DNA of 64,000 nucleotides, taken from assembly GCA_963707865.1 (NCBI GenBank), contig OY970175.1, forward strand, positions 300,352-364,351, given 5' to 3'. Below, piece by piece: positions 2,125 through 42,400 of this stretch. The stretch is from an uncultured bacterium (lineage in GTDB: Bacteria; Patescibacteriota; Minisyncoccia; UBA6257; 2-01-FULL-56-20). The position numbers and the translations under genes are program-made. Below the pieces are notes generated by a model. That model did not search any database. It was not told the origin of the DNA and saw only the letters and a list, made by a program, of their open reading frames with translations. Each line of letters starts with the position of its first letter. Within the stretch, counting starts at the first letter, position 1.

Positions 2125-3258
2125 ATGAAAACCGAAAGTTTCCGTGTAGTGGTGGCGGGCGGGGGAAGCGGGGGACACGTATACCCCACGATCGCGGTGA
2201 TTGAAGCGCTCAAAAAGCAGTGTGCCGAGCTCGGAGTGCCGCTTGAGGTGATCCGCGTGGGTCCGCGGGATGGCTACGAACCGCTCTTCGCCGACTGCGG
2301 TGTCGCGCTTTCACCGATTGTGGCCGGCAAGGTCCGCCGATATGCATCATTAGCGAACTTCGTTGATATCCCCAAATTCTTTATTGGATTCCTCCACGCG
2401 CTTTTCAAGCTGTACTTCCTTATGCCCGACGTTATTTTTTCAAAAGGCGGTACGGGTGCCTTGCCCGTTGTCGCCGCTGGCTGGTTTTATCGCATCCCCA
2501 TCGCTATCCACGAATCCGACGCGAAGCCGGGCCTCACCAACCTTTTTTCCGCGCGTTTCGCGAGAAGAGTGTTTGTGAGCTTCGCAAGCGCGGCCGTTTA
2601 CTTCAATCTGCAGAAAACGCAAGTGACGGGAACCCCGATCCGGGAGGGACTCCTCGTAGGAAGAACCGCGAAAGAACCTACAAAAGAAACACTTGGTTTT
2701 GATTCCCAAAGTTCGCTTACGCTCATTCTTGGCGGCTCACAGGGCTCGCAACGGATCAATCAATTCATTCTTGAGAGCATTGTCGCGCTCGTAAAGGAAA
2801 CCCAGGTGCTCCATCAAACCGGCGCGGCGAATTTGCCGGAGGTTGCGCGACTCTCCCGCGCCGCGCTCATTGATGAATCGTTCCAAAACCGCTACAAGGC
2901 CGTGGGATATTTCGAGAAAGACCTTTCGCTCGCGCTTGCCGCCGCCGACCTCGTGGTCGCACGCGCTGGCAGCAACACTATCGCCGAAGTCGCCTCGTTC
3001 GGCATCCCCATGATCCTTATCCCGCTTTCCGATGCGGCCAACGACCACCAGAAACTGAACGCTTACGAATTCGCAAAAAACGGCGGCGCCGTCGTGATTG
3101 AGGAAGCCAATTTATTTGAAGGCATCTTTCTCGGGCAACTAAAGGCGATTCTTGGCAACGAGGAGTTGCGCGCCAAGATGAGTGCCGCCGCAAGCCAATT
3201 CTTCCTCCCCGATGCTGCGGGAAAAATTGTGGAGGAGCTGCTCCGCCTTGCGATATAG
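2125..3258 (+). CDS. murG: UDP-N-acetylglucosamine--N-acetylmuramyl-(pentapeptide) pyrophosphoryl-undecaprenol N-acetylglucosamine transferase
   Basis: 377 aa. N-terminal G-rich loop VVVAGGGSGGHVYPTIAV typical of MurG. GT-B C-terminal domain. Follows ftsW. Confidence 0.9.
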   Translation: MKTESFRVVVAGGGSGGHVYPTIAVIEALKKQCAELGVPLEVIRVGPRDGYEPLFADCGVALSPIVAGKVRRYASLANFVDIPKFFIGFLHALFKLYFLMPDVIFSKGGTGALPVVAAGWFYRIPIAIHESDAKPGLTNLFSARFARRVFVSFASAAVYFNLQKTQVTGTPIREGLLVGRTAKEPTKETLGFDSQSSLTLILGGSQGSQRINQFILESIVALVKETQVLHQTGAANLPEVARLSRAALIDESFQNRYKAVGYFEKDLSLALAAADLVVARAGSNTIAEVASFGIPMILIPLSDAANDHQKLNAYEFAKNGGAVVIEEANLFEGIFLGQLKAILGNEELRAKMSAAASQFFLPDAAGKIVEELLRLAI

Positions 3259-3274
3259 AAGCGCAAAAAAAACA

Positions 3275-5026
3275 ATGAACGCTGAAATCAAAGCTTGCCA
3301 AAATTGCAAAAAACAGTTCGCGATTGAGCAGGATGATTTTGCGTTTTATGAAAAGATAAAGGTTCCGCCGCCCACGTGGTGCACAGAGTGCCGCAGAGAG
3401 CGCCTTTTAACGTGGCGGAACGAACGAACCCTTTATAGAAGGAAATGTGCTGCGACTAATAAAGATATCATTTCCGTATTCCGCCCCGACAGCCCGATGA
3501 CCATCTACGACCGGGACTATTGGTGGAGTGACAGCTGGAATCCAGAAGACTTCGGACGGGAATACGACTTCTCCAAGCCGTTTTTTTCGCAGTTCAGAAG
3601 CCTGATGGAAAAAGCTCCCATGCCTGCAGTGTTCAACTCACAATGCTTGAACAGTGAATATTGTAACCACATAACCAAATCTAAAAACTGTTATCTTGTT
3701 TTTGCCACGTGGCATTCCGAGAATCTGATGTACTCGGCGCAGTGCAGCGATACCACCGACTCGCTGGACATCCTTACTGGTACCGAGTGCGAGCTTTGTT
3801 ATGACGACATAAAAGGCATAAAGCTGTACCGCGTCTTTTATTCCGATAACTGCGAAGGCTGCAGTGATTGCGCCTTTTTATATGACTGCAAGGGTTGCCA
3901 GTACTGCTTTGGCTGCACCAATCTCCGCAACAAATCATATTACTTTTTCAACAAATCCCTTGGCAAAGAAGCGTATTTGGAAAAGATGAAGGAATTCAAC
4001 CTCGGCAACCGCGAGGGCGTAAGGCGAGCCAAGCAAAGGTTTGAAACAGAAAAGCTCCGCGCGATCAGACGCCCAGCGTTCCTTGTCAATTCAACCAACT
4101 CAACGGGAGATTATCTCGAGCGGTGCGAATCGTGTGTGCATTGCTTCGGCATTCGGGCGGGGGCAAAAAACTGCAAGAATTGTTACAACGGCGGCTATAA
4201 TCTTTTTGATTCGCGGGATTCGTACGGTCCGGGAGTCAATGCCGAACTTCTCTACGAAAGCATAGACACCGGGGTCGAGGGTTCTTCGCTTTACTTTGAC
4301 ATTGTGGTATACGGCGGTATGAACGTGGAATATAGCTACAATTGCCATGGTGCAAGCAATTGTTTCGGCTGCGTTGGTTTACGAAATAAACAATACTGCA
4401 TATTAAACAAGCAATACTCGAAAGATGCGTATGAGATCTTGATAACCAAGATAAAGCAACACATGAGCGACGTGCCCTATATCGATAAGAAGGGCAGAAA
4501 ATACTCCTACGGTGAATTCTTCCCGGTTGAGCTATCTCCATTCGCTTTCAATGAAACCATATCGTACGAGTTTTTCCCCTATTCGCGCGGCGAACTTCGA
4601 TCACGCGGGTACGAATATCTCGAACCGGCGAAAACAAGCTATAAAGTGACTGTTGATGTCGGCAATGTCCCGGTCGACTTGAGAGACGTAGACAAAAAAG
4701 TAACGGATGAAGTAATCGCATGCGAGCACGCGGGAACTTGTCGCGATAATTGCAGTGGCGCATTTCGCATAACCCCGCAGGAACTGCAGCTTTATGAAAA
4801 ACTGCATATATGCCTGCCGGTGCTCTGTCCGAACTGTCGCCATATGGAGCGCGTGCGCCGTACTAACCCATTTTTCCTTTGGCACCGTGTGTGTCAATGT
4901 TCCGGGGGTTCTGCGCCGCATTTTCATGGCACAAACCGTTGCCCTAATGAATTTGAAACCTCCTATGCCCCTGACCGATCAGAGATCGTTTACTGCGAGC
5001 AGTGCTATCAGGCAGAAGTGGCTTAA
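3275..5026 (+). CDS. Cys-rich multi-zinc-ribbon repeat protein (unknown function)
   Basis: ORF track gives 3182..5026, but the first ATG not overlapping murG is 3275 (MNAEIKACQNCKK...). The N- and C-termini carry homologous CxxC-x(17-20)-CxxC modules. The centre has repeated C..CFGC..LRNK.Y...NK modules. About 50 Cys in total. Confidence 0.6.
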   Translation: MNAEIKACQNCKKQFAIEQDDFAFYEKIKVPPPTWCTECRRERLLTWRNERTLYRRKCAATNKDIISVFRPDSPMTIYDRDYWWSDSWNPEDFGREYDFSKPFFSQFRSLMEKAPMPAVFNSQCLNSEYCNHITKSKNCYLVFATWHSENLMYSAQCSDTTDSLDILTGTECELCYDDIKGIKLYRVFYSDNCEGCSDCAFLYDCKGCQYCFGCTNLRNKSYYFFNKSLGKEAYLEKMKEFNLGNREGVRRAKQRFETEKLRAIRRPAFLVNSTNSTGDYLERCESCVHCFGIRAGAKNCKNCYNGGYNLFDSRDSYGPGVNAELLYESIDTGVEGSSLYFDIVVYGGMNVEYSYNCHGASNCFGCVGLRNKQYCILNKQYSKDAYEILITKIKQHMSDVPYIDKKGRKYSYGEFFPVELSPFAFNETISYEFFPYSRGELRSRGYEYLEPAKTSYKVTVDVGNVPVDLRDVDKKVTDEVIACEHAGTCRDNCSGAFRITPQELQLYEKLHICLPVLCPNCRHMERVRRTNPFFLWHRVCQCSGGSAPHFHGTNRCPNEFETSYAPDRSEIVYCEQCYQAEVA

Positions 5027-8582: not shown

Positions 8583-9122
8583 TTGTATAGTGGCAACATG
8601 GAAATGTTGCCGGGGGATTACATTGCCGGATTTGTGGATGGCGAAGGGTGTTTCGCGCTGAAGTTCATCCGATCCGTGCGCCATGACAGGAAAAACAAAC
8701 CAGTTTATTTTTATTGGGATGTGGAATTTATTATTGCTTTGCGAATAGACGACAAAGAAATTTTGGAAAAAATTCGGACATCGCTGGAGTGTGGGCGAAT
8801 AAGCCTCAGCAAAAGTGGTGAAGCGAGGTTTTACGTGAACGCAATCAATGATTTGAAAGATAAACTAGTACCATTTTTTGAAAAATATTCCTTACGTGCC
8901 AAAAAACAGAAGGATTTTTTATTATGGAAAGAGGCATTAATGATTCTGTATAAAAATCAGCAGATCAATATTTTGAGGAGAAAACAACAGAAAGGATTTT
9001 TAAAAATTAATATGAATGAAACCGATCGGCGTCGGTTACGCGAAATTCACGAGGAGATGAAACCCATCAAGAGCAAGAGAAAAGCTGACTGGAAGTGGTT
9101 AAATGCAGAAAGCAAAAGCTAG
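8583..9122 (+). CDS. LAGLIDADG-family homing endonuclease (single-motif, free-standing)
   Basis: Motif LPGDYIAGFVDGEGCFALKF matches the LAGLIDADG consensus. 179 aa is typical of homodimeric enzymes. The gene and its flanks are markedly AT-rich relative to neighbours. Confidence 0.75.
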   Translation: MYSGNMEMLPGDYIAGFVDGEGCFALKFIRSVRHDRKNKPVYFYWDVEFIIALRIDDKEILEKIRTSLECGRISLSKSGEARFYVNAINDLKDKLVPFFEKYSLRAKKQKDFLLWKEALMILYKNQQINILRRKQQKGFLKINMNETDRRRLREIHEEMKPIKSKRKADWKWLNAESKS

Positions 9123-12821: not shown

Positions 12822-14630
12822 TTATCCCCTCCCGGCCCTCTTTTTATCGCTCTCCGTCAGATATTGTTTCCGGATGCGGACGCTCTGAGGTGTAACCTCC
12901 ACGAGTTCGTCGTCGCCAATATAGTCCAGCGAGTCCTCAAGCGAAAGTGAGAGCGGCGTTTCAAGTTGGTCGGCAAGGCCTTCGTTCTTCGCACGGAAAT
13001 TTGTAAGCTGCCTTTCACGGGCAACGTGTACCATCACGTCGCCGTCCTTCGCGTTCTCGCCGACAACCATACCTTCGTAGACCTCTATACCTGGGCCGAT
13101 AAAAAGCGTTCCCCTCCCCTGCGCGGTCACGAGACCGTAGTTGTTTGATTTGCCCACCTGCGTGGCCACAATGGAACCGTGCGGGATGGCGGTAATGTCG
13201 CCCTTATATGGCTCATAACCAAGAAAGATGCTGTTCATAATGCCCGTGCCTTTTGTGGCCGTGAGGAACCGGTTGCGGATGCCGATGAGCCCGCGCGTGG
13301 GAATTTCAAAATCCATAAATGAGTTCTTTTTATCGTCCATCCGCATGTTCTTCATCACCCCGAGGCGCTTTCCCATCATTTCAATCACAACGCCGGAATA
13401 TTGTTCGGGCACTTCGATGGAGACAAGTTCCATTGGTTCCAGTTTTTTACCATCTTTTTCTTTGAAAATAACCTGTGGTTTTGAAACTTCCAGTTCAAAT
13501 CCTTCACGGCGCATTTTCTCAATAAGGATGGCGAGGTGCAGTTCGCCGCGGCCCGCGACGATCCAGCGGTCGGCGGCTTCGGTTGGCTTCACGGAAAGCG
13601 CCACGTCAGTTTCAAGCTCGTGTTCCAACCGCTCTTTTATGTTCCGTGAGGTCGTTAATTTCCCCTCTCTGCCGCGGAAAGGCGATGTATTCACGCTGAA
13701 CGTCATCTTGATCGTCGGTTCGTCAATCAGAATAGTAGGGAGTGGCATTGGGTGTTCGGGATCGGTGATCGTCTCACCGATCGTGATGTCAGGAATACCG
13801 GCAATCGCCACAATGTCCCCTGCTTCTGCCTGATTCACATCCACGCGGCCCAATCCGTCAAACAACATCACGGACGTGAGTTCTTCTTTTTTTATCTCGC
13901 CCGAACGGGTGACGCGCGCCACAGTCATTGCTTTTTTAAGGATGCCTGAATACAAACGCCCGATGGCGATCTTCCCTTTATAATTGTCATACGCAAGATT
14001 CACGGTGAGCATCTGTAAAATATCGGTCTCGCTTTTTTTGGGCGCTGGAATGTGTTTCACGATCGTTTCAAAGATCGGCTCAATATTTTTCATCTCCCTC
14101 AAATTTTTTGCGAGGCCCGCTTTCCCTTCACGCGCGGCGGCGTAGATCACGGGGAATTCAATCTGCTCTTCCGTGGCGTCCAGCTCAAAAAAGAGGTCGT
14201 AGGTGGCATTGAGCGCCCACTCCGGCCGCGCATCCGGCTTATCAATTTTATTTATGACGACTACTATTTTGTGCCCCGCTTGGATCGCTTTCCTCAAAAC
14301 GAACTTCGTCTGGGGCATCGGACCTTCTTTCGCGTCCACAAGGAGCAACACGCCGTCCACCATACGCATGATGCGCTCCACCTCGCCGCCGAAGTCCGCA
14401 TGGCCCGGCGTATCCACGATATTGATCTTTATGCCCTTGTACATCACCGCCGCGTTCTTGGAAAAGATGGTGATCCCCCGCTCCCGTTCCAGTTCGTTCG
14501 TATCCATGATGAGCGTCGTTTCCGCGCCGCTCTTCAACTTAAAGTTCGTCGACTGCTTCAAGAGCGCGTCAACGAGCGTCGTCTTCCCGTGATCCACATG
14601 GGCGATAATGGCAATATTTCGCAGCTCCAT
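12822..14630 (-). CDS. typA: translational GTPase TypA/BipA
   Basis: [21 protein letters not shown]1 motif and DTPGHADF G3 motif. 602 aa with EF-G-like domain architecture. Confidence 0.92.
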
Positions 14631-14765
14631 GACGACTTATTATAGACGCTTTCTATATTTTTAGAAAGGTTGTATAATATGGGTAGCCTTTTGAGATATT
14701 CTCCATACGCTCCTTGATAGCCGAATTTGTTTTGTTTTCAAAGGCCGTCAAATTGCATAAATCTC

Positions 14766-15659
14766 ATGAAAAAATTATTTATTACTTTATTTTTTGTGGT
14801 TGCAATCGCGAGCTTTGGAGGAATACTGGGTCCATTTACCGCACGTGCCGATAATACGCTCACGCCAGCGCAGGCAGCCGTAATGCAACAAGCGCTTAAT
14901 ACGATGAAGGCGGAGCTGCGCGAGCTCCAAGCCCAGGCCGCGGCGCAAACGGGCGCACCGACGCTGGCGCCGACCCCTGCCGTCCTTGGATCTTCGCTTA
15001 CGCCGGAAAACGCTGCATCGCTTGCAAACGTGCTTTCCCTGCTCACCACGGCGCTCACGGGCCTTCAATCAAGCCTGGCGAGAAATCCACAAATCATCGC
15101 AGGCCATGAAGGGGCCATCCTATCCACGCTGAAAGGTGTGGGTACCACGCTCGCAATGATTGGGGCAACACTCGCAGGGAACCCAAGCGCCGCTCCACTC
15201 GCGGTTTCGTCACCATCCGCCGTAACTGCCGCGCCTGTTCCGCAGGCGCAGGTGCAGGCGCCCACTCCCACACCGGAAACCCCCACACAAGTGATGCCGC
15301 AAACATCGGGGGCCACGAATCCCGAAAACACACTGCCGCAGATCGCACAGGTGGGAACGACCTGGTCGCTCTGGAACTTAAACTGGCCGCTCATCGGTGT
15401 GATCGCACTTGTGGTCATCGCAGTGCTTACATGGCTTTTCTGGCCAGGCGGTGAGAACGAAGAGGTAGAAGTGAAAGAGAGAAGCTCGCCTTTCCCCGCA
15501 CCTACCGTTACGCTTACGAGCATCGCAAAGCCAGTGGGGTCACCGTCGGCGCCAATCGCAACTAGTGCCGTAGCGACACCCCTCGGCGTACCTGCCGGAA
15601 GATCACCCCAACCCCCGCAACCCTCGCAACAGCCGCATCAGCAAAGGAAACCCGCATAA
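14766..15659 (+). CDS. hypothetical secreted Ala/Pro-rich protein with C-proximal TM helix
   Basis: ORF 14727..15659; the likely start is MKKLFITLFFVVAIASFG at 14766. Coiled-coil A/Q-rich region. TM helix IGVIALVVIAVLTWLF. Pro-rich tail. Confidence 0.5.
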   Translation: MKKLFITLFFVVAIASFGGILGPFTARADNTLTPAQAAVMQQALNTMKAELRELQAQAAAQTGAPTLAPTPAVLGSSLTPENAASLANVLSLLTTALTGLQSSLARNPQIIAGHEGAILSTLKGVGTTLAMIGATLAGNPSAAPLAVSSPSAVTAAPVPQAQVQAPTPTPETPTQVMPQTSGATNPENTLPQIAQVGTTWSLWNLNWPLIGVIALVVIAVLTWLFWPGGENEEVEVKERSSPFPAPTVTLTSIAKPVGSPSAPIATSAVATPLGVPAGRSPQPPQPSQQPHQQRKPA

Positions 15660-15677
15660 CGCGGGTTTTCCTTTTGG

Positions 15678-15756
15678 TAAATTTCTAATTTCTAATGTCA
15701 AATTTCTAATGACCAATCGGACGTTCAGCAAGTTGGACATTCGACATTAGAATTTT
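15678..15756. repeat. AATTTCTAATG-family inverted-repeat hairpin element (copy A)
   Basis: ttctaatgtc...tgaccaa-[16 nt]-ttggaca...gacattagaa forms an imperfect palindrome. It contains the 23-mer AATTTCTAATGTCAAATTTCTAA, which recurs inverted at 16157. Confidence 0.6.
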
Positions 15757-15783
15757 TTAATCTTTATATGCTATTTTGTCTGA

Positions 15784-16146
15784 ATGGCAAAGAAAAGAAT
15801 TTATGACCTTGAGGAACGGACGGCGAAATTCGGGGAAGCGATTATACGCCTCGTTCTTCGGATAACAAAAACAACCGTGAACGACGTTGTTGTGGTGCAA
15901 TTGGCGCGTGCCGGAACAAGCATCGGCGCTAATTACTGCGAAGCCGACGATGCGGAATCCAGAAAAGATTTTCGGCATAAAATCGGCATTTGCAAAAAAG
16001 AGGCGCGAGAAGCCGCCTACTGGCTTCGCATGACGACGATCATCCATCCAACGATTAAAAACGAGGCTGACGCACTTCGGCAAGAAGCGAAAGAATTAAA
16101 CCTCATTTTCAACGCAATTCGGAAAAAAATGGGAATTCACCATTAG
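15784..16146 (+). CDS. four-helix-bundle protein (23S rRNA intervening-sequence protein family)
   Basis: 120 aa. FGEAIIRLV...LARAGTSIGANYCEA...KEAREAAYWLRM matches the TIGR02436-type four-helix-bundle family by eye. Confidence 0.7.
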   Translation: MAKKRIYDLEERTAKFGEAIIRLVLRITKTTVNDVVVVQLARAGTSIGANYCEADDAESRKDFRHKIGICKKEAREAAYWLRMTTIIHPTIKNEADALRQEAKELNLIFNAIRKKMGIHH

Positions 16147-16156
16147 TCACCGGCTG

Positions 16157-16179
16157 TTAGAAATTTGACATTAGAAATT
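16157..16179. repeat. AATTTCTAATG-family element (copy B), exact inverted 23-mer of copy A
   Basis: TTAGAAATTTGACATTAGAAATT is the reverse complement of AATTTCTAATGTCAAATTTCTAA at 15686..15708. The two copies bracket the four-helix-bundle gene. Confidence 0.65.
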
Positions 16180-16344
16180 ATGACGTTCTTCTCACACTAC
16201 AAAAAAGAACTTCTCCTTGGGGCCATTATTTTCTTAGTGTCGTCTTTGAGTTTCGGTCTCGGCTATCTTGCAAACCGCGAATTCAACCATGTTCCCATCA
16301 TCATTGAGAATTGCAGAAATACGGGAACAAGCATCCCTTAACCC
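16180..16344 (+). CDS. possible small membrane protein (54 aa)
   Basis: ATG at 16180 gives MTFFSHYKKELLLGAIIFLVSSLSFGLGYLANREF... with one TM helix. It is below the ORF-track size cutoff. Weak. Confidence 0.25.
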
Positions 16345-16404
16345 GGCCATTAGCCAGGCATTCGGCATTAGGCATTAGAAATTCAACATTAGAAATTAGA
16401 AACT
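16341..16404. repeat. AATTTCTAATG-family element (copy C), tandem CATTAG(G/A) units
   Basis: ccattagccaggcattcggcattaggcattagaaattcaacattagaaattagaaac, at the 3' end of the minus-strand exonuclease gene. Confidence 0.55.
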
Positions 16405-17133
16405 TAAACATTGTTCCCACTTTGTGTAGAGTTCGCGGGTCGCGCGGAGATCCCCCACATTATACCGCGCAATATCCAAAAACTTTTTCTTTTTGAAAAG
16501 CGGCCCTACGTCGTCGCCCGTCACACCTCCGGACTTCGGACTCGGAATGCCGAACGCACGCGACCACAAATGCAAACTCCCCTTTCGCCGCGTCGCGCCA
16601 TAGAATGAAAGCTGTTCCGCAAGGTCAATATGCAACGCCTCGGGATTATTTTGGTAGAGATATCGCCCGCGCATGAGGTCCTTCGTCGGTTTCACCCCCT
16701 TGATCGCGGAACGGATCATCAAAAACGGCACGTCAAACGCGCGGCCGTTGAACGTAATGAACACTTGGTAACGCGTGGCGAGTTCCCAGAACTTCCGGAG
16801 CATTTCCTCTTCCTCCATCTGCTTGAACGAGATGCCGCCTTCTTTTATCTCCTCGTTGCGCTCGCCCGGCGCCTGATAATACACCCCACCTTCGTTCTTG
16901 TGATAATCCAAAACGCCGATCGCGACGATCTCTCCCGTCAAGGGCGAAAATCCGAGGCCATTCTTCAGCTCCGTGAGCGCGCGTTTATATTCTTCCTCGT
17001 TTTCGGAATCCTTTTTGATCCAATGGGTAAGATTTTCCTGCGTCGCGCGGTCAAGCTTTTCAAACTCCTCCCCTATCGTTTCTATGTCCAGAATCAATTT
17101 GTTCGTTGACGCCATGGTTGACTTTGTTTTCAT
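16396..17133 (-). CDS. DEDDy 3'-5' exonuclease, RNase H-like (PolB-exonuclease-like)
   Basis: Exo I LILDIETIG. Exo II FNGRAFDVPFL. Exo III YNVGDLRATRELY. 245 aa. Confidence 0.7.
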   Translation of the reverse strand: MKTKSTMASTNKLILDIETIGEEFEKLDRATQENLTHWIKKDSENEEEYKRALTELKNGLGFSPLTGEIVAIGVLDYHKNEGGVYYQAPGERNEEIKEGGISFKQMEEEEMLRKFWELATRYQVFITFNGRAFDVPFLMIRSAIKGVKPTKDLMRGRYLYQNNPEALHIDLAEQLSFYGATRRKGSLHLWSRAFGIPSPKSGGVTGDDVGPLFKKKKFLDIARYNVGDLRATRELYTKWEQCLSF

Positions 17134-17156
17134 TCTAACATAGAATAGAAACCACT

Positions 17157-17429
17157 ATGGCACATACGAAAGCCCTCGGTTCAACCAAATTGGGACGCGA
17201 TTCTGTCGCGAAGCGGCTCGGCGTGAAGATCAACAATGGTCAAAAAGCGGCGGTTGGGCAGATTATCGTCCGCCAGCGCGGCACGAAATACGTGCCGGGC
17301 GTGAATGTCATTCGTGCGGAGGACGACACGCTCTACGCCGCGAAGAACGGCGTCGTAAAATTCCTTACGAAGATGAAAACAAACTTCGACGGCTCACGGA
17401 AAAAAGCGACATTCGTCGCAGTGCAGTAG
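17157..17429 (+). CDS. rpmA: 50S ribosomal protein L27
   Basis: [24 protein letters not shown]...[16 protein letters not shown] matches the L27 consensus. Confidence 0.92.
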
Positions 17430-17469
17430 CGGCGCAATAGCTGCCGCAGCGTGACGAGAGACGGCCCGC

Positions 17470-17922
17470 TTAACGCGTGGCCTTTTTTACCACTATTGTC
17501 ATGTTCGCCGTGATGCCTTTTTTGAAATCGATCGTGATCGCATACTCCCCTGCTTCTTTGAGTGGGTGCGCGAGATCAATGTCCACGCGTTCCGTGGTGA
17601 TCAACCCGTGTTCGCGGAGCGCCCTGAGAATGGATTCTTTGTTGACGGAGCCGAAGATGGCGCCTGATTTGTCGGCGGCAAGTTCAAATTCCAATTTCGT
17701 ATCCGCAATCTTCCGTGCGATTTCCGCACGATGCGCGCGGAGCTCGCGGTCATTTTTCTCATATGCCGCCTTTTGCGCCTCAAGTTTTTTGAGCGCGGCG
17801 GGCGTGGCCGGCTCGGCAAGTTTATTCACGAAAAGAAAATTTCGGGCGTAGCCGCCACTCACTTCCTTCACTTCGTATTTTTTGCCGACACTGCGGACAT
17901 CTTCAAGAAGGATCACTTTCAT
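17470..17922 (-). CDS. rplI: 50S ribosomal protein L9
   Basis: [30 protein letters not shown] matches the L9 N-terminal domain. 150 aa. Confidence 0.9.
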
Positions 17923-18000
17923 AATTTTTAATTTCTAAATCTAATTTCTAATGTCCAAGGGCTATTGGTCATTCGTCATAAGAAATTAGTCATTAGAAAT
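17921..18000. repeat. AATTTCTAATG-family inverted-repeat hairpin element (copy D)
   Basis: aatttctaatgtccaa-gggcta-ttggtcattcgtcataagaaattagtcattagaaatt lies between the ctpA stop and the rplI start. Same arm sequence as copies A-C. Confidence 0.6.
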
Positions 18001-19251
18001 TTCATTCTGCAGTACCTGTATCGCTTTATCAAGCTGGGGATCGCGGCCGTTCGCGATGTCGTCGTCGGAACGCGCTACGGCGTAATCCGGCGCGATGCCC
18101 TCGTGGTCAATGATCTTTCCCAAAGGCAGCACCCAGTGGGCCACCGTGAGCTTGATCGCAGAGCCATCCGAGAGCGACTCAAGTTCCTGCACGGTTCCCT
18201 TCCCGAAGCTCGTTTCCCCCACGAGCGGCACGTGCCGATCGTCGTGAAGCGCACCTGCAAGGATCTCCGCCGCGGATGCCGAGCCGCCATTCACAAGCAC
18301 GGCGATCGGGAAATTTGAGAGGATACCTTCGCCCTGCGCCGTGTAATCCTGCTCCGGCACCGCGCGGCCTACTTCTTTCACCACGAGCGAACCGGGCTTC
18401 AGGAAATATCCCGCGATGTCAACCGCAACCTCAAGATACCCACCGGGGTCGTCGCGGAGGTCAAGTACGATCCCCTTTGCATTCTTGGCAAGCGCTTTGA
18501 CGAGTGCTTGGTAAAAAAGGAAATTGGCGTCCTCAGTGAACTCGCTTAACGTGATGTGCGCGATATTGCCTTTCATTTCAAATTCCACGTTCGGAACTTG
18601 GATGTTCGTCCGCGTTATCTTGAAATCTTTCGGCGCGCTCCAACCGGTACGCAGTATGCTCAAGGTGACGACGGTTCCTTCCGGTCCGCGGATCAAGTTC
18701 ACTGCATCATCCACCGTCATGCCGCTCGTGGATGTCGCGTCAACGGCAACGATCCAATCCTTCGGTTTCAGCCCCGTCTTCTCCGCCGGCGTACCCTTGA
18801 GCGGCGCCACCACCACGATGTGGCCGTCAGCGTCCGTGCCGAGCTGCGCGCCGATGCCCCCAAAGTCGCCCGTGATGTTTTCCTGGAATTGCTGGTTGCT
18901 TTGTGGCGTGAAAAATTCCGAATACGGATCGTTCAGCGAATTCACGAGGCCGTTCACCGCGCCGTACAGTTTATCCTCGTTGGTCGTGCTTCCGTTGCGG
19001 AGATAGTTATCGTTGATAGTCTGCCACGCCTGCCAGAACAAGCTGAAGTCGGCAGCGCTCATGCCCGTGGATGACGGCGGCGCAAGATCGGTCGCGCCGG
19101 TCACGACGACGACCGGCTGTGGATTTTTTTTCTCTGCATTCCAGCCGAGGAAAAAACCGCTCCCAAGGAGCGCAAGACCCACGATAGCGGCAATCCCTAT
19201 TTCCAATATTTTTTTGCCGACGCGAGAACCCATCTCAAAAGTATATCTCAT
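17986..19251 (-). CDS. ctpA: carboxyl-terminal processing protease (S41 family)
   Basis: PDZ region followed by the S41 catalytic region. LVNGGSASAAEILAGAL and GETSFGKGTVQ motifs. N-terminal TM anchor. Confidence 0.88.
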   Translation of the reverse strand: MRYTFEMGSRVGKKILEIGIAAIVGLALLGSGFFLGWNAEKKNPQPVVVVTGATDLAPPSSTGMSAADFSLFWQAWQTINDNYLRNGSTTNEDKLYGAVNGLVNSLNDPYSEFFTPQSNQQFQENITGDFGGIGAQLGTDADGHIVVVAPLKGTPAEKTGLKPKDWIVAVDATSTSGMTVDDAVNLIRGPEGTVVTLSILRTGWSAPKDFKITRTNIQVPNVEFEMKGNIAHITLSEFTEDANFLFYQALVKALAKNAKGIVLDLRDDPGGYLEVAVDIAGYFLKPGSLVVKEVGRAVPEQDYTAQGEGILSNFPIAVLVNGGSASAAEILAGALHDDRHVPLVGETSFGKGTVQELESLSDGSAIKLTVAHWVLPLGKIIDHEGIAPDYAVARSDDDIANGRDPQLDKAIQVLQNEISND

Positions 19252-20293: not shown

Positions 20294-20780
20294 AATTGTT
20301 GCGGTAGGCAATAAAAACAATGAAAAAATCCTGCGTAAAAAAGCAGTTGATTTTGATTTCAAGAAATTTACGCGGAAAGAAGTGAACGAATTCGTCGCCA
20401 CAATGCGCCGCGTCATGAAAGCGGCGAACGGCATCGGCCTTTCCGCAAACCAGATCGGCCTCCCCTACCGGGTGTTCGTCGCCGAAGTGCCGGACGCGCA
20501 GGGCGGCACGAAATTTTATGCCGTGTTCAATCCGAAAATTGAAAAAGTGAGCGACGAAACCGTGCCGTACGAGGAAGGATGTTTGAGCGTGCCCGGCGTC
20601 TGGGGCGACGTCACGCGTCCCGCGAGGATCATGGTAAGCGGTTTTGATAAGAACGGGAAACCCGCAAAAGTAAAGGCGTGGGGACTCCTCGCGCGCGTGT
20701 TCCAGCACGAGGTGGACCATCTGAACGGAAAACTTTTCATTGATCGAACGAAGAAGCTACGGAAAATTTCTCATGCCTAA
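20283..20780 (+). CDS. def: peptide deformylase
   Basis: GIGLSANQIG, EGCLSVPG, HEVDHLNG, the three PDF motifs. Confidence 0.9.
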   Translation: MADEIVAVGNKNNEKILRKKAVDFDFKKFTRKEVNEFVATMRRVMKAANGIGLSANQIGLPYRVFVAEVPDAQGGTKFYAVFNPKIEKVSDETVPYEEGCLSVPGVWGDVTRPARIMVSGFDKNGKPAKVKAWGLLARVFQHEVDHLNGKLFIDRTKKLRKISHA

Positions 20781-20786
20781 TTTCCA

Positions 20787-21617
20787 ATGAAGTACGTCTT
20801 TTTCGGCACGCCGCGCTTCGCGGAAATCATTCTTGAGCGCCTCCTCCGCGCGGACATGCCGCCAGTGGCCCTTGTATGCAATCCCGACCGACCAACCGGA
20901 CGGAAAAAGGTTATCACTCCCCCGCCGACAAAGCGGCTCGTGCTCTCGCGCGGCGCGGAAAATTCCCGCATCAAAATTTTCCAGCCAGAAAAATTGGATG
21001 AATATTTTATCGGAGAACTCGCCGCGCTGGGCGTGGATTTTTTCCTGGTCGCGGCCTACGCGAAGATCATTCCAAGGGCCGTGCTTGACGTTCCTCGCCT
21101 TGGCGTGATTGGCGTCCATCCCTCGCTCCTGCCCAAATACCGCGGCGCTTCCCCTATCCAATCGGCTATTTTGAACGGCGAGCGCGAAACCGGCGTCACG
21201 CTGTACTTGATGGATACAAAGATGGACCATGGGCCAATCCTTGCGCATGATGCGATCCCGGTAGACAGTTTAAAGACGAATTATTGCGAACTTGAGGAAA
21301 AACTTGCAAATCTTGGTGCGGCACTCCTCATAAAAACCCTGCCGGCGTTCGTAGGGGGGAAGCTTATGCCAGAGGCGCAGAATGAACGGGAGGCTACCTA
21401 TACGAAAAAATTTGCGACGGAAGACGGTTTTGTGGATGGGACAAAAGAATCCCCGGAAGAGATTGTCCGGAAAATCAATGCCCTCACGCCCGAACCGGGC
21501 GTCTGGACCGTGCGGAACGGTAAGCGGGTAAAACTGCTCAAAGCTGAAGTCCGCGGCAACGCGCTCCGCCCCCTCCTTGTCCAAGAAGAAGGCAGGAAAC
21601 CGGCTGCGCCCGATTAG
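20787..21617 (+). CDS. fmt: methionyl-tRNA formyltransferase
   Basis: VFFGTPRFA N-terminus and HPSLLPKYRGASPIQSAILNGE formyltransferase motif. Follows def. Confidence 0.9.
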   Translation: MKYVFFGTPRFAEIILERLLRADMPPVALVCNPDRPTGRKKVITPPPTKRLVLSRGAENSRIKIFQPEKLDEYFIGELAALGVDFFLVAAYAKIIPRAVLDVPRLGVIGVHPSLLPKYRGASPIQSAILNGERETGVTLYLMDTKMDHGPILAHDAIPVDSLKTNYCELEEKLANLGAALLIKTLPAFVGGKLMPEAQNEREATYTKKFATEDGFVDGTKESPEEIVRKINALTPEPGVWTVRNGKRVKLLKAEVRGNALRPLLVQEEGRKPAAPD

Positions 21618-39817: not shown

Positions 39818-40288
39818 TTATTGCTGCTGCGACGCGGTAAATTTCCATGCGATGCGGTCGCCCGCATGCACCGCGGTGTGATCGGCGCCCTCCGTAGCAT
39901 ACACGCCGTTCACCCAGTACTGCCAGTACGCACCGCCTACACCATTTATTTTATCACCAATTTCCGTGATGAGAATCCCCGTGCCTGGATAGACCTTGTA
40001 ATTGAAAGCAAGTCCGGCATTCGCGGCAGCAACCTGGACCACCGAAAAAACGGTGGAGGCAGCGATTATAGAAACGGTGCCGTTCACAATATCTTTCGTA
40101 CCATCAAAGACAACGAGCGTTGCGGAAGCAACTGACGGCAGCGCGGGCATGGACACGGACGACGACGGGGCTTCAGTGGAAACCGCTATGGGTGCGGCTG
40201 CCGGCGCCGATGAAAAGGAATGCCATCCTGCCCAACCAGCAAGTGCTGCCGCAGCTACAATGCAAGCAATGATAAAAACTCTTTTCAT
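39818..40288 (-). CDS. secreted DUF4430-domain protein (BtuH/transcobalamin-like fold)
   Basis: Signal peptide. LVVFDGTKDIVNGTV...GGAYWQYWVNGVYATEGADHTAVHAGDRIAWKF matches the DUF4430 C-terminal signature (yW.Y.VNG...GD.I.w.Y). Confidence 0.7.
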   Translation of the reverse strand: MKRVFIIACIVAAAALAGWAGWHSFSSAPAAAPIAVSTEAPSSSVSMPALPSVASATLVVFDGTKDIVNGTVSIIAASTVFSVVQVAAANAGLAFNYKVYPGTGILITEIGDKINGVGGAYWQYWVNGVYATEGADHTAVHAGDRIAWKFTASQQQ

Positions 40289-42204
40289 CGGTTCTTGCAA
40301 AGATTATTCAGAACTGCGCGGGTTGCAGGACCGACAAAGCCGTTGCCGGACAAAAGCCCGTTCGGCGCAAGGATCTGATCGGCAAAAATATTCTGAAAGG
40401 CAACGGTCGCGTTTTTCGTTCCATTACCAAAGTAGGCGGTCTCGTTGCCTGGCGAACCGGGGCCGTCCTTCGCGACCTCCGTAAGCGGAGCGTAGTTGAA
40501 AACCTTTTGGAGATTCTCTACGTCGGGATCATGCATTCCCTGATGCAAGTTTTTATTGAACGTGACCGCACAATTGTTCGTTTTGAACTCAAGCGTGACC
40601 AATTCCTTTTCCAGATCAATGAGCTCGCCGATCACGCTCGTCGTTGACGCACCGAGGACCTCCCCCGCCGTTGAGGTCTGGGTAGCCGTGGTCATGCTCT
40701 GCAGAGAAAGCGATGACGAGGATGCCGCTGGCGAAGGCAACGCCGACACGTTTTCTCCACCACCGGAGCTCGCGGATGTAGTCGGCGCCGTGACCGTGAG
40801 CGGCAATCTGGAACCGTCGCCGTAGTACCAGACCACGTTGTCGCCTTGCTTCACGTTATAATCCGCCGCACTGACCGAAGGCGAAACAGAATTCACAAGA
40901 TACAGCCATCCGTCCGCGCCCGATGCCGCAACGGATCCGATCTGGTCCACGTATGATCCGGAGCTGTACTGGTGGATGTGATAGCTCACGTCGCAGGATG
41001 ACGACGCGTCCGCGAGAACGTCCATCGCCGTGAGCGCAGGCCCCGTGCCTGCGCAGAGTTCCGCGAACGGTCCTTCAATACGGTAAGAAACCTGCACGGG
41101 CGCCGGTCCACCACCACCGCTACCACCCCCTCCCCCGTTCCCTCCTCCCACTAGCACAACAATCCCCGATGTCGACGAGGTCGCCGTGGTGCTTGTAGCT
41201 GTCGTGCTCGTAGCTATCGTGCTGGAGACCGGCGTGATTATGGCGGTCGGTAAAAACTTTTCAAGGAGTGCGATCACAGCGTATGAAGTTGTCACCGGAC
41301 TGAACGAATCCTCGCCACTCCCCGACTGGTATTCAAAAAATCCGGAGGATGTGTTCTGAAACGAAAGCAAATTCGCCACGGGATCGGCGCCGCTCGCCGC
41401 GATCCAGGCGGACGACGTCGGACGTTGCCCGAACGCATTGATCACGGAAACGATCCACGAATCGGATGAGGCATCCGTAGACGTCCCGTAAGGGCTCGTG
41501 GGATCATACGAAAACCCGCCATCGGGGTTTTGCGCACTCTTCAAATATTTGGTCGCATTCTGAATGGCAAAGTCGGAAACGTTTGATCCGGTTGCAAGGA
41601 GCGCCATGACGGCGGCGGCGGTCGTATTCGTATCGCTCGTTCCGCCGATGGCATATGCGAAGCCGCCGTCAGTGGCGTTCTGATTGTTCAACAAAAAACT
41701 TCGCGCGCCCGAGACCGTCGGATCACTTGACGACACTCCCGCCGCACGCAATGCGAGCAATCCAAAAATATCGTCGTTAAGCGTAGAGGTGCCGCCGATC
41801 TCGCCCGTCGTCGTGCTCACGAAACTCTCAAGGTCCGCAACGAGGTCTTCGCCGCCGATAAATGTGCGCGGATCGTTGCCGGTTGCCGCAATCGCCATAA
41901 TCGGCGCCTCAAGAGCAATTGCCGTAGAGGTGCTCGTGCCCGCGAGCGCAAGCGACACAGAAGAAGTGCTCGGTATATTGCCCGCTGCAGAAAGCGCCAT
42001 GATGCTCCATGGATTAAGCGGCTTGGATTGCAAATAAGAAACAGCAGCAGCGATCGCCGAGGCGATGTCCGGCGTCGTGGAAGCGGTGGTGGAAATGGTG
42101 GAAGTGGTAGTGGCGGAGCTCGTATCCGCAAGTGAATGCGCAGGCAGTGCCATGAACGCTGCAACGGCAAACAAGAGAACGACGAATAAGAAAGTTTTTT
42201 TCAT
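40285..42204 (-). CDS. secreted fusion protein: prenyltransferase/terpene-cyclase-like alpha-toroid repeats + DUF4430 + peptidoglycan-binding domain
   Basis: Signal peptide. Repeats GGFAYAIGGTSDTNTTAAAVMALL and DGGFSYDPTSPYGTSTDASS. Internal DUF4430 block (WLYLVNSV...KQGDNVVWYYG). C-terminal PG_binding_1-like FQNIFADQILAPNGLLSGNGFVGPATRAVL. Confidence 0.65.
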   Translation of the reverse strand: MKKTFLFVVLLFAVAAFMALPAHSLADTSSATTTSTISTTASTTPDIASAIAAAVSYLQSKPLNPWSIMALSAAGNIPSTSSVSLALAGTSTSTAIALEAPIMAIAATGNDPRTFIGGEDLVADLESFVSTTTGEIGGTSTLNDDIFGLLALRAAGVSSSDPTVSGARSFLLNNQNATDGGFAYAIGGTSDTNTTAAAVMALLATGSNVSDFAIQNATKYLKSAQNPDGGFSYDPTSPYGTSTDASSDSWIVSVINAFGQRPTSSAWIAASGADPVANLLSFQNTSSGFFEYQSGSGEDSFSPVTTSYAVIALLEKFLPTAIITPVSSTIATSTTATSTTATSSTSGIVVLVGGGNGGGGGSGGGGPAPVQVSYRIEGPFAELCAGTGPALTAMDVLADASSSCDVSYHIHQYSSGSYVDQIGSVAASGADGWLYLVNSVSPSVSAADYNVKQGDNVVWYYGDGSRLPLTVTAPTTSASSGGGENVSALPSPAASSSSLSLQSMTTATQTSTAGEVLGASTTSVIGELIDLEKELVTLEFKTNNCAVTFNKNLHQGMHDPDVENLQKVFNYAPLTEVAKDGPGSPGNETAYFGNGTKNATVAFQNIFADQILAPNGLLSGNGFVGPATRAVLNNLCKNR

Positions 42205-42400
42205 GAAACGAAAAATCCCGCAACGGGCGGGACGACAGGCGACAATGCAGCACCTCCATCGTCCCTTAGCTCGAGGAACCTGGTTTATTTTTATTTATCA
42301 AGAATGGTAATCGGACTTTCCGCGACTCCGCGGATCACCGTAGCGGCACTGTGCGGGACTCCCACCCGCTTCCCCATTCCTGATTAACAACCTTTCAAAT
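42205..42400 (-). ncRNA. cobalamin (B12) riboswitch-like leader with intrinsic-terminator expression platform
   Basis: Minus-strand RNA: ...AAUGGGGAAGCGGGUGGGAGUCCCGCACAGUGCCGCUACGGUGAUCC... matches the conserved GGGAA..GGUG..UCC..AC.G.CCGC.AC.GUGA core. A hairpin UCCCGCCCGUUGCGGGAUUUUU ends 8 nt before the start codon. Confidence 0.6.

Follow-up and report, generated by a model that had tools for sequence, protein, structure and literature searches.

The 64,000-nt stretch of DNA analysed here (the window; contig OY970175.1 of assembly GCA_963707865.1, from an uncultured bacterium of the Patescibacteriota, with a GC content of about 54%) probably carries a foldback cassette of the intervening-sequence (IVS) type, in which an open reading frame (ORF) for a four-helix-bundle (4HB) protein occupies the loop of a palindrome, together with ORF-less relatives of that palindrome gained at other gene junctions. 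The hairpins A and D and the single arms B and C described below are the likely members of this ORF-less set. The palindrome arms are built of tandem heptamers, and the window locus, combined with about 180 comparison loci, ties heptamer repeats to ORF-carrying IVSs, two classes of sequence for each of which no origin or function is generally agreed upon.

Four arrays of 7-nt units lie within 15678-18002, with the units AATTTCT / AATGNCN and, in reverse, ATTAGAA; the units read AATTTCT / AATGTCA / AATGACC on the strand termed L and ATTAGAA / ATTCGAC / ATTAGTC on that termed R. For each of the four loci, Tandem Repeats Finder reports a 7-nt period and between 3.3 and 5.1 copies, and at least three head-to-tail 7-nt units in intergenic DNA, the pattern that defines heptanucleotide tandem repeats, are present at each of them. 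Array A has an L-loop-R layout (15678-15756), its left arm (15678-15721, L) reading AATTTCT AATTTCT AATGTCA AATTTCT AATGACC AATCGGA and its right arm (15732-15756, R) reading GTTGGAC ATTCGAC ATTAGAA TTT and forming a local hairpin with the left. The 4HB gene follows, and then array B (16141-16180, R), a small membrane-protein gene, array C (16347-16406, R), which lies between this small gene and a convergent exonuclease gene, and, 1.5 kb further on, the ORF-less hairpin element D, again L-loop-R (L arm 17923-17958, R arm 17964-18002), at the junction of an S41 peptidase gene and rplI. An earlier, sequence-only reading of this DNA had described four intergenic loci with a shared arm sequence, and all four are present at the positions it gave; their 7-nt periodicity had gone unmentioned in it. 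The exact inverted 23-mer that it saw bracketing the 4HB gene is real, but the exact repeat is 24 nt long (15686-15709 / 16157-16180, the latter the precise reverse complement of the former), and the 23-mer starts at 15687 rather than 15686. A longer, imperfect inverted pair of 40 nt with 88% complementarity joins 15678-15717 to 16367-16406. The left arm of A is complementary to every R arm of the cluster, over 24 of 24 nt to B, 40 nt (88%) to C, 27 nt (81%) to the right arm of A and 39 nt (79%) to that of D.

The repetition claimed in the same reading holds up against expectation: the 64-kb window contains 10 copies of TTTCTAAT where 1.78 are expected, a number of copies that none of 100 shuffles reached, and nine of the ten copies fall in 15682-17999, while AATTTCTAATG, with at most one mismatch allowed, occurs 13 times versus 1.11 expected. 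Beyond 15.6-18.0 kb, matches in the window are at chance level save for a weak copy at 20.8 kb, and within these 64 kb the family is therefore a local cluster rather than a dispersed one. The weak copy is a probable degenerate two-unit array (20765-20789, plus strand; AATTTCTcATGcct AATTTCcAATG) at the def/fmt junction, where AATTTCTcATGcctAATTTCcAATG spans the C-terminal codons of def and the ATG of fmt. No Rfam family matches the arrays at either gathering or permissive thresholds.

In RNA folding, the loci behave differently alone and in combination. Hairpin A reaches -20.2 kcal/mol, with a z-score of -3.6 against shuffled sequences, and hairpin D has z-scores of -5.0 on the minus strand and -5.7 on the plus strand, in agreement with the prior description of both as hairpins, whereas arrays B and C taken singly fold no better than shuffles and are unstructured. 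In a transcript covering 15676-16184, a 28-bp terminal stem between the left arm of A and array B encloses the whole 4HB ORF in both the minimum-free-energy and the centroid structure (z -5.8), which bears out the IVS-like architecture that had been proposed. The two ORF-less hairpins, of about 80 nt each, furnish the terminal inverted repeats and small ORF-less copies that are characteristic of MITEs (miniature inverted-repeat transposable elements). The arrays also reach into the ends of adjoining genes. The stop codon TAG of the 4HB gene (16144-16146) belongs to the first CATTAG unit of array B, whose other end falls on the start codon (ATG, 16180) of the gene for the 53-aa membrane protein (16180-16341, plus) and which replaces the 5' leader of this gene; the stop codon (16396-16398) of the PolB-like 3'-5' exonuclease gene (16396-17133, minus) lies inside array C; and element D provides the final codons and stop of the S41 peptidase gene (17986-19251, minus) and ends 0-1 nt from the ATG (17922) of rplI (17470-17922, minus).

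The 120-aa product of the 4HB gene (15784-16146, plus) was correctly assigned in the sequence-only reading, since it scores 52.9 bits against PF05635 (cut-off 33.8) and 73.9 bits against TIGR02436 (cut-off 24), and its family matches are to 4HB models alone. Its length agrees with the approximately 110-125 aa of the family, and it has the conserved R..S...N..E motif: across 10 aligned members, S46, N50 and E53 never vary and S43 hardly does; R42 was read from the sequence, and Q39 of the window protein takes the place of the G with which the published motif GxxRxxxSxxxNxxE opens. Homopentamers of four-helix bundles characterise the family, and the closest solved relative by sequence similarity is the uncharacterised protein PDB 2rld, deposited with five chains (E=1.3e-13). 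More than 7000 homologues were found at E <= 1e-25. The 4HB protein is not known to have catalytic activity.

Comparison with close relatives indicates that these sequences were gained in the window lineage. Exonuclease homologues 85-89% identical to that of the window are abundant, and those bearing a source name are from Candidatus Paceibacterota, in line with a window gene content indicative of the candidate phyla radiation (Patescibacteria). Two contigs, L204 and L206, are syntenic with the window and have exonucleases 86-89% identical to its own; the gene order is fmt, def, S41 peptidase, rplI, rpmA, exonuclease, a 300-aa gene and bipA in L204, and S41 peptidase, rplI, rpmA, exonuclease and a partial ORF at the place of the window's 310-aa gene in L206. 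L206 and the window genotype stem from sister samples (ERR10755942 and ERR10755944). Neither the 4HB gene nor arrays are present at the orthologous junctions of these two contigs. The S41 peptidase gene and rplI overlap by 4 nt in L204 and are 9 nt apart in L206, compared with 63 nt occupied by hairpin D in the window, and the interval from the exonuclease gene to the 300/310-aa gene spans 217-239 nt in L204 and L206 and contains only the small membrane gene and a shared terminator. A third relative, L202, shares with the window the convergent arrangement of exonuclease gene and small gene but has an ordinary GC-rich terminator in place of array C. The def/fmt junction of L204 is different and without the two-unit array, and the C-terminus of the window def is altered relative to that of L204. 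As arrays and 4HB gene are missing from L204 and L206, they were gained after the split from those relatives, which accords with the inserted nature that had been suggested for them; in the window lineage, four or five junctions within 5 kb so acquired arrays and one acquired the 4HB gene. The left boundary of the gained DNA is the intrinsic terminator (15646-15670, plus, located by a terminator scan) of a gene for a 310-aa secreted-type protein (14727-15659, plus), the same hairpin being found in L204 and L206. The 53-aa membrane-protein gene is a resident outside the element, with homologues in L202-L207 and retained in array-free relatives; its product has no match in Pfam or NCBIfam scans. 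An inversion of this small gene via the arrays was considered and rejected, since its orientation varies among array-free relatives too. The neighbourhood is prone to rearrangement even without arrays, as seen in the flips of the small gene among relatives and in rplI, which has one orientation relative to the S41 peptidase and exonuclease genes in the window, L204 and L206 and the opposite one in the close relatives L201, L207 and L208.

Inverted arrays flanking the gene are a general property of the 4HB family. An inverted-repeat score was computed for 72 of the 80 closest metagenomic 4HB relatives (50-65% identical) as the best local alignment between the upstream 120 nt and the downstream 120 nt in reverse complement. 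These 72 genes had a median score of 17, versus 7.5 for 170 control ORFs of the same loci; 61% of the 4HB genes exceeded the 95th percentile of the controls (Mann-Whitney p=7e-23), and in 89% the inverted orientation outscored the direct one. Chains of at least three AAT units stood in both flanks of 41% of the 4HB genes versus 1.2% of the controls. The arms are AAT-phased short tandem repeats, such as AATTTCT together with 9-mers of the type AATTAACCT, AATGACG(AA), or AATGACA/AATGTCA; a strict single-period test was abandoned because 7- and 9-nt units are mixed in them, and the inverted-repeat score and AAT-chain count were used instead. In many cassettes the L arm reaches the ATG (for example ...AATCAAAYCCCA-ATG), and the pairing of the arms takes in the start codon. 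The same gene-in-palindrome layout was found for six 4HB genes on viral contigs, and strong inverted arrays were present at four of the eight copies inspected on plasmids of cultured bacteria, with arms of AATTCGT x4 on each side in Dolichospermum, AATCCCC / AATCGTA in Planktothrix, AAGTCGG / AGGTCGG in Nostoc punctiforme PCC 73102 and AAGTAAA in Nostoc sp. TCL26-01. Since these plasmids are complete, they confirm the layout independently of metagenome assembly. All eight plasmid genes sit between neighbouring host genes. The flanks that are functionally linked, on plasmids of cultured cyanobacteria and Bacteroidota (L220-L226), include cas2 and cas1 (with the 4HB gene on the opposite strand), csx2 and cas1, drmD and MmeI of DISARM, and the adaptor and permease of a resistance-nodulation-division (RND) efflux system. 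No rRNA context was detected at the 72 metagenomic, six viral and eight plasmid loci by motif scan or from plasmid annotations. The statement that the family is normally found in 23S rRNA is thus not borne out at these loci, and the suggested transplantation of the cassette from rRNA finds no support in them.

The arrays themselves were traced by scanning a species-representative genome set with the 23-nt pattern AATTTCTAATGNNNAATTTCTAA, which matched at least 119 stretches; the figures that follow refer to the matches listed. Most lie in lineages of the candidate phyla radiation (CPR), and others in Bacteroidota, Chloroflexota, WOR-3 and metagenome-assembled genomes (MAGs) labelled Proteobacteria. 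Nearly all are parts of longer heptamer arrays, a few in coding sequence of AT-rich genomes are chance matches, and the common units are AATTTCT, AATGTCT, AATGACT and AATGACG, followed by AATCAAT/AATCAAA. Short-loop hairpins, with a partner arm at most 120 nt away, account for 31 of the 119 stretches, and the polarity L..R outnumbers R..L by 38 to 4. Only two copies have a loop of about 430 nt (L055 and L116), and in both the loop is a 4HB gene. A 4HB gene occurs within 8 kb at 7 of the 119 array loci. All ten 4HB genes found in array loci are bracketed by arrays, whose unit differs between cassettes (AATTTCT; AATTTTA; AATCAAC; AATTACT). By type of intergenic region, 67 arrays are in tandem, 14 in convergent and 11 in divergent ones, against a background of 538/94/98; this agreement in proportions fits insertion better than a specialised role as terminator or promoter. 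Carriage of the arrays by phages was rejected, as five pattern matches on viral contigs amounted to two distinct chance matches in coding sequence, unaccompanied by arrays. A Saccharibacteria MAG (L055, 3843-7797) holds three 4HB cassettes in 4 kb, with arm units AATTTCT, AATTTTA and A-rich, and proteins 27-57% identical to that of the window. In a motif scan of the fetched comparison loci for rRNA, a 16S gene was seen only in L105 (Niyogibacteria; about 2200-4100, minus), with the array outside the gene. The conserved motifs of this 16S gene are widely spaced (515-907, 759 nt apart; 907-1100, 1100 nt), which implies large insertions.

Gene and arms diversify together. Proteins sharing an arm type are 6.9 percentage points more identical to each other than to those of other types, a difference that none of 2000 permutations reached, and the effect holds among pairs of similar host GC (62.5% versus 56.7% identity). 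AT-rich arms occur not only in the window but also in hosts of 54-66% GC (L135, L149). The tracking of 4HB phylogeny by arm type favours inheritance of gene and arms as a unit, although specific recognition of the repeats by the protein would likewise yield such a correlation. In 47 cassettes, the arms align over a median of 37 nt with 84% Watson-Crick pairs. Movement of the cassettes is slow or rare: one 4HB cassette was found at a single site with identical arms in eight samples, without change in array copy number. Two candidate cases of recent transposition were rejected, namely identical 4HB genes on three plasmids of Nostoc flagelliforme, which reflect duplicated backbone segments, and a 4HB protein seen on many contigs, whose context is always the same.

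These observations suggest a possible course of events. Gene and arms would be inherited and transferred as one unit, with AT-rich arms persisting even in a host of 54% GC, and the elements gained at the junctions would have overwritten stop-codon and 5'-leader sequence. What keeps the arms complementary may act on the DNA itself, by way of palindromes or foldbacks that form there and of slippage among the tandem units, homogenisation between the two arms being an alternative DNA-level route. In any transcript that runs through both arms, the 28-bp stem would be a substrate of RNase III, whose cuts would release the 4HB RNA and part the cistrons on either side of it, as in 23S rRNA IVSs; this proposal draws on the resemblance of the stem to that of the RNase III-cleaved Coxiella IVS, which is also 28 bp. 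For the genes they abut, the arrays may act as leaders lacking a Shine-Dalgarno sequence. A more speculative and rather unlikely extension would make the 4HB pentamer the specific partner of AAT-phased repeats, a ring that reads the units, much as the ring protein TRAP reads GAG repeats, with the gene and its arms being the source of the ORF-less heptamer arrays and hairpins found across genomes of CPR, Bacteroidota and cyanobacteria. The leads for such a partnership are the joint diversification of arm type and protein and the arms of cyanobacterial plasmid cassettes, which are heptamers of the classic kind.

Several observations weigh against the cassette interpretation and moderate the confidence placed in it. 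Of the listed array loci, 93-94% have no 4HB gene within 8 kb, and the ORF-less hairpins hold no remnants of a 4HB ORF, with a weak possible exception in L084, so that their derivation from cassettes is conjectural. Conversely, a minority of 4HB genes are flanked by direct arrays or by none. Tight clustering of arrays near a 4HB gene, as in the window, recurs at only 1 of 30 other loci and was rejected as a general rule. The nearest homologue of the window protein (its own entry aside) is only 71% identical. The mismatches in the arms of the 47 cassettes show no sense-strand excess of G:U pairs (42 G:T versus 62 A:C) and hence no signature of selection on a sense RNA stem, complementarity looking like a DNA-level property. 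The unchanged single-site cassette in eight samples indicates that movement is rare, and no case of recent transposition came to light. The element is accompanied by no transposase, integrase or nuclease, and no target-site duplication is recognisable against L204 and L206, the flanks being too diverged for a firm verdict. The IVS-like or MITE-like view of the sequence-only reading is largely right as to architecture and gain by insertion, but membership of the MITEs finds no support for an element whose long-loop cargo is the 4HB gene only and which has no recognisable transposase.

Other explanations of the arrays were weighed against the same data. Regulatory sites of the host, that is, Shine-Dalgarno-independent leaders or operators with the 4HB gene as regulated gene or regulator, would account for the position of array ends at start codons, as for B at the small gene and D at rplI, and among 120 array ends from other genomes an ATG that begins an ORF of 60 codons or more lies no further than 25 nt away in 31 and no further than 3 nt in nine, compared with 9% and 2% of random positions, a control not restricted to intergenic DNA. 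Judging from the sequence, every three-unit run also places stop codons in all frames of both strands, and there is a precedent in the repeat-binding factor proposed for the TAACTGA repeats of Beggiatoaceae (PMC4679880). In compact genomes, however, any filler of short intergenic space comes near start codons; rplI and the small membrane gene have orthologues without arrays in close relatives, and thus form no conserved regulon; and the arrays prefer no gene arrangement, while a leader needs no palindromic L..R organisation. A regulatory role is therefore improbable as the main explanation. The same low probability attaches to an origin in place, by slippage or template switching, of simple-sequence repeats in which 4HB genes merely land or survive. 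In many bacteria, heptamers are more frequent than any other long simple repeats (Mrazek 2007, cited in PMC4679880); the GGGAATC arrays of Xanthomonas are often convergent pairs (PMC4692102); some 4HB genes have direct arrays, as though inserted in a tandem array; and the ancestral junctions resemble array units (GAGATACCTTAA versus GAAATTTCTAA; TTCTGAATCAAATCG versus TTCTAATCAAATCCC), which suggests seeding. Against this stand the recurrence of the same 23-nt pattern, inner motif and L..R polarity in more than 100 genomes of unrelated phyla, the persistence of AT-rich arms in GC-rich hosts with an arm type that follows 4HB phylogeny at similar GC, and the constancy of array copy number across eight samples of one population. 

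The idea that the arrays are promoters, with the TTGACA in their arms as a -35 element, or intrinsic terminators can be regarded as very improbable. TTGACA is indeed present in the left arm of A (minus strand) and in B, and hairpins A and D lie downstream of genes. No -10 partner occurs at 16-18 nt, and a scan finds neither promoter nor terminator in any array, so that the -35 role proposed in the sequence-only reading finds no support; the same scan does find the terminator at 15646-15670 and an rpmA promoter at 17118-17146, both outside the arrays. Furthermore, the array stems are AT-rich and without a U tract, unlike GC-rich intrinsic terminators, and the arrays lie in divergent, convergent and tandem regions at background proportions. 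The foldback cassette with ORF-less relatives hence remains the preferred interpretation.

Some features of the surrounding DNA deserve mention. The sigma-70 promoter at 17118-17146 (TTGACT-17-TAGAAT) ends 10 nt ahead of the ATG of rpmA (17157-17429, plus), and in a second promoter, at 14631-14660, TATAAT lies 8 nt ahead of the ATG of typA/bipA (12822-14630, minus). If these promoters are used, the rpmA and typA mRNAs would be nearly leaderless, and in several genes of the window no Shine-Dalgarno sequence is visible; promoters close to start codons and missing Shine-Dalgarno sequences may explain the tolerance of array insertions at start codons. No rRNA was detected in the window by Rfam, the sole matches being an adenosylcobalamin (AdoCbl) riboswitch and one tRNA. 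The riboswitch (42251-42400, minus, 68 bits) lies 5' of the gene (40285-42204) for a 639-aa protein that combines DUF4430 and prenyltransferase-like toroid domains, and beyond the riboswitch, at 42.4-44.6 kb, GC drops to 43-48% and the scanned ORFs have no Pfam match. A free-standing LAGLIDADG_1 homing-endonuclease gene (8583-9122, plus, 82 bits) occupies a patch of about 45% GC, compared with about 54% for the window, and neither rRNA nor a group I intron was detected around it; it is a second gene of a type typical of CPR rRNA insertions that is found here in protein-coding space.

Among known systems, MITEs and repetitive extragenic palindromic (REP) elements share with the window family the occurrence of short ORF-less intergenic palindromes related to a longer ORF-bearing form. 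Eukaryotic foldback transposons, some with a coding loop and others lacking one, have long inverted arms made up of short tandem subrepeats, like the arms in the window. Unlike these elements, the window family is without a transposase or a gene of the REP-associated tyrosine transposase (RAYT) type, and without a target-site duplication that could be seen; there is no burst of near-identical copies, and its only cargo is a non-enzymatic helical bundle. Another relative is Avd, the accessory protein of diversity-generating retroelements (DGRs), a pentamer that binds nucleic acids and belongs to the same Pfam family with a homologous four-helix-bundle fold. Flanking heptamer arrays are, however, not a DGR feature, and among the adjacent ORFs no DGR reverse transcriptase or template/variable repeat was evident, although no search was aimed at them.

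PF05635 genes have also been reported in CPR rRNA insertions (10.1101/2024.02.27.582315) and between cas genes, where they were read as functionally linked (PMC3936711). Given the location of 4HB genes between linked host genes, it may be insertion, and not a functional tie, that lies behind the association with CRISPR-Cas loci reported for this family. A paper that connects 4HB genes with flanking heptamer arrays was not found in the searchable literature, subscription-only journals aside, and literal motif strings returned unrelated primers only; the association of 4HB genes with inverted AAT-phased arms is widespread and apparently undescribed. For genome annotation, this means that cassettes lie between neighbouring host genes, functionally linked pairs included (cas2|cas1, drmD|MmeI, RND efflux), and that arrays rewrite the ends of adjoining genes.

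ORF-carrying rRNA intervening sequences have been described since 1993. IVSs of 23S rRNA with an S23p/4HB ORF are known from Leptospira, Coxiella, Xanthomonas and Brucella (Warrier 2016, PMC4990558); that of Coxiella, whose stem measures 28 bp, undergoes RNase III cleavage, and such IVSs are regarded as selfish elements of unexplained origin (PMC4990558). The window cassette resembles them in its ORF family, in a terminal-repeat stem round the ORF (28 bp in Coxiella, 28 bp in the window), in a sporadic distribution read as horizontal transfer and in having no recognisable mobility enzyme. It differs in its position, which is between protein-coding genes rather than in a helix of 23S rRNA, such as 9, 25 or 45, or of 16S rRNA, in arms that are tandem 7-nt arrays, and in the ORF-less copies nearby. 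The IVS-type gene is usually embedded in a repeat palindrome, outside rRNA and in many phyla, and the heptamer repeats also exist as ORF-less hairpins gained at gene junctions.

Heptanucleotide tandem repeats have been described since about 1990 as the short tandemly repeated repetitive (STRR) sequences of cyanobacteria. TAACTGA repeats occur in Beggiatoaceae, Cyanobacteria and Bacteroidetes (MacGregor 2015, PMC4679880), and GGGAATC / GGGGAYT repeats in Xanthomonas and Nostoc, with 70 convergent GGGAATC pairs (Rehm 2015, PMC4692102). Like the window family, these repeats form intergenic 7-nt arrays, often directly 5' of start codons and often as convergent pairs, with a patchy spread across phyla (Cyanobacteria, Bacteroidota, some Proteobacteria) and an unexplained function. 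The window family is distinguished by its unit (AATTTCT / AATGNCN), by hosts that are mainly CPR/Patescibacteria, by its L..R polarity with an inner AATCAAATCCCAATG-like motif, and by arrays tied to a specific cargo gene, a link not made in PMC4679880 or PMC4692102. The arms of cyanobacterial plasmid 4HB cassettes (AATCCCC, AATTCGT) are heptamers of the classic class, and AATCCCC is complementary to GGGGATT, a heptamer known from work on Anabaena/Nostoc (PMC4692102). If the partnership of 4HB protein and AAT-phased repeats were true, a common origin would follow for the intervening sequences of 23S rRNA and for three kinds of heptamer repeat, namely cyanobacterial STRR, TAACTGA and GGGAATC.

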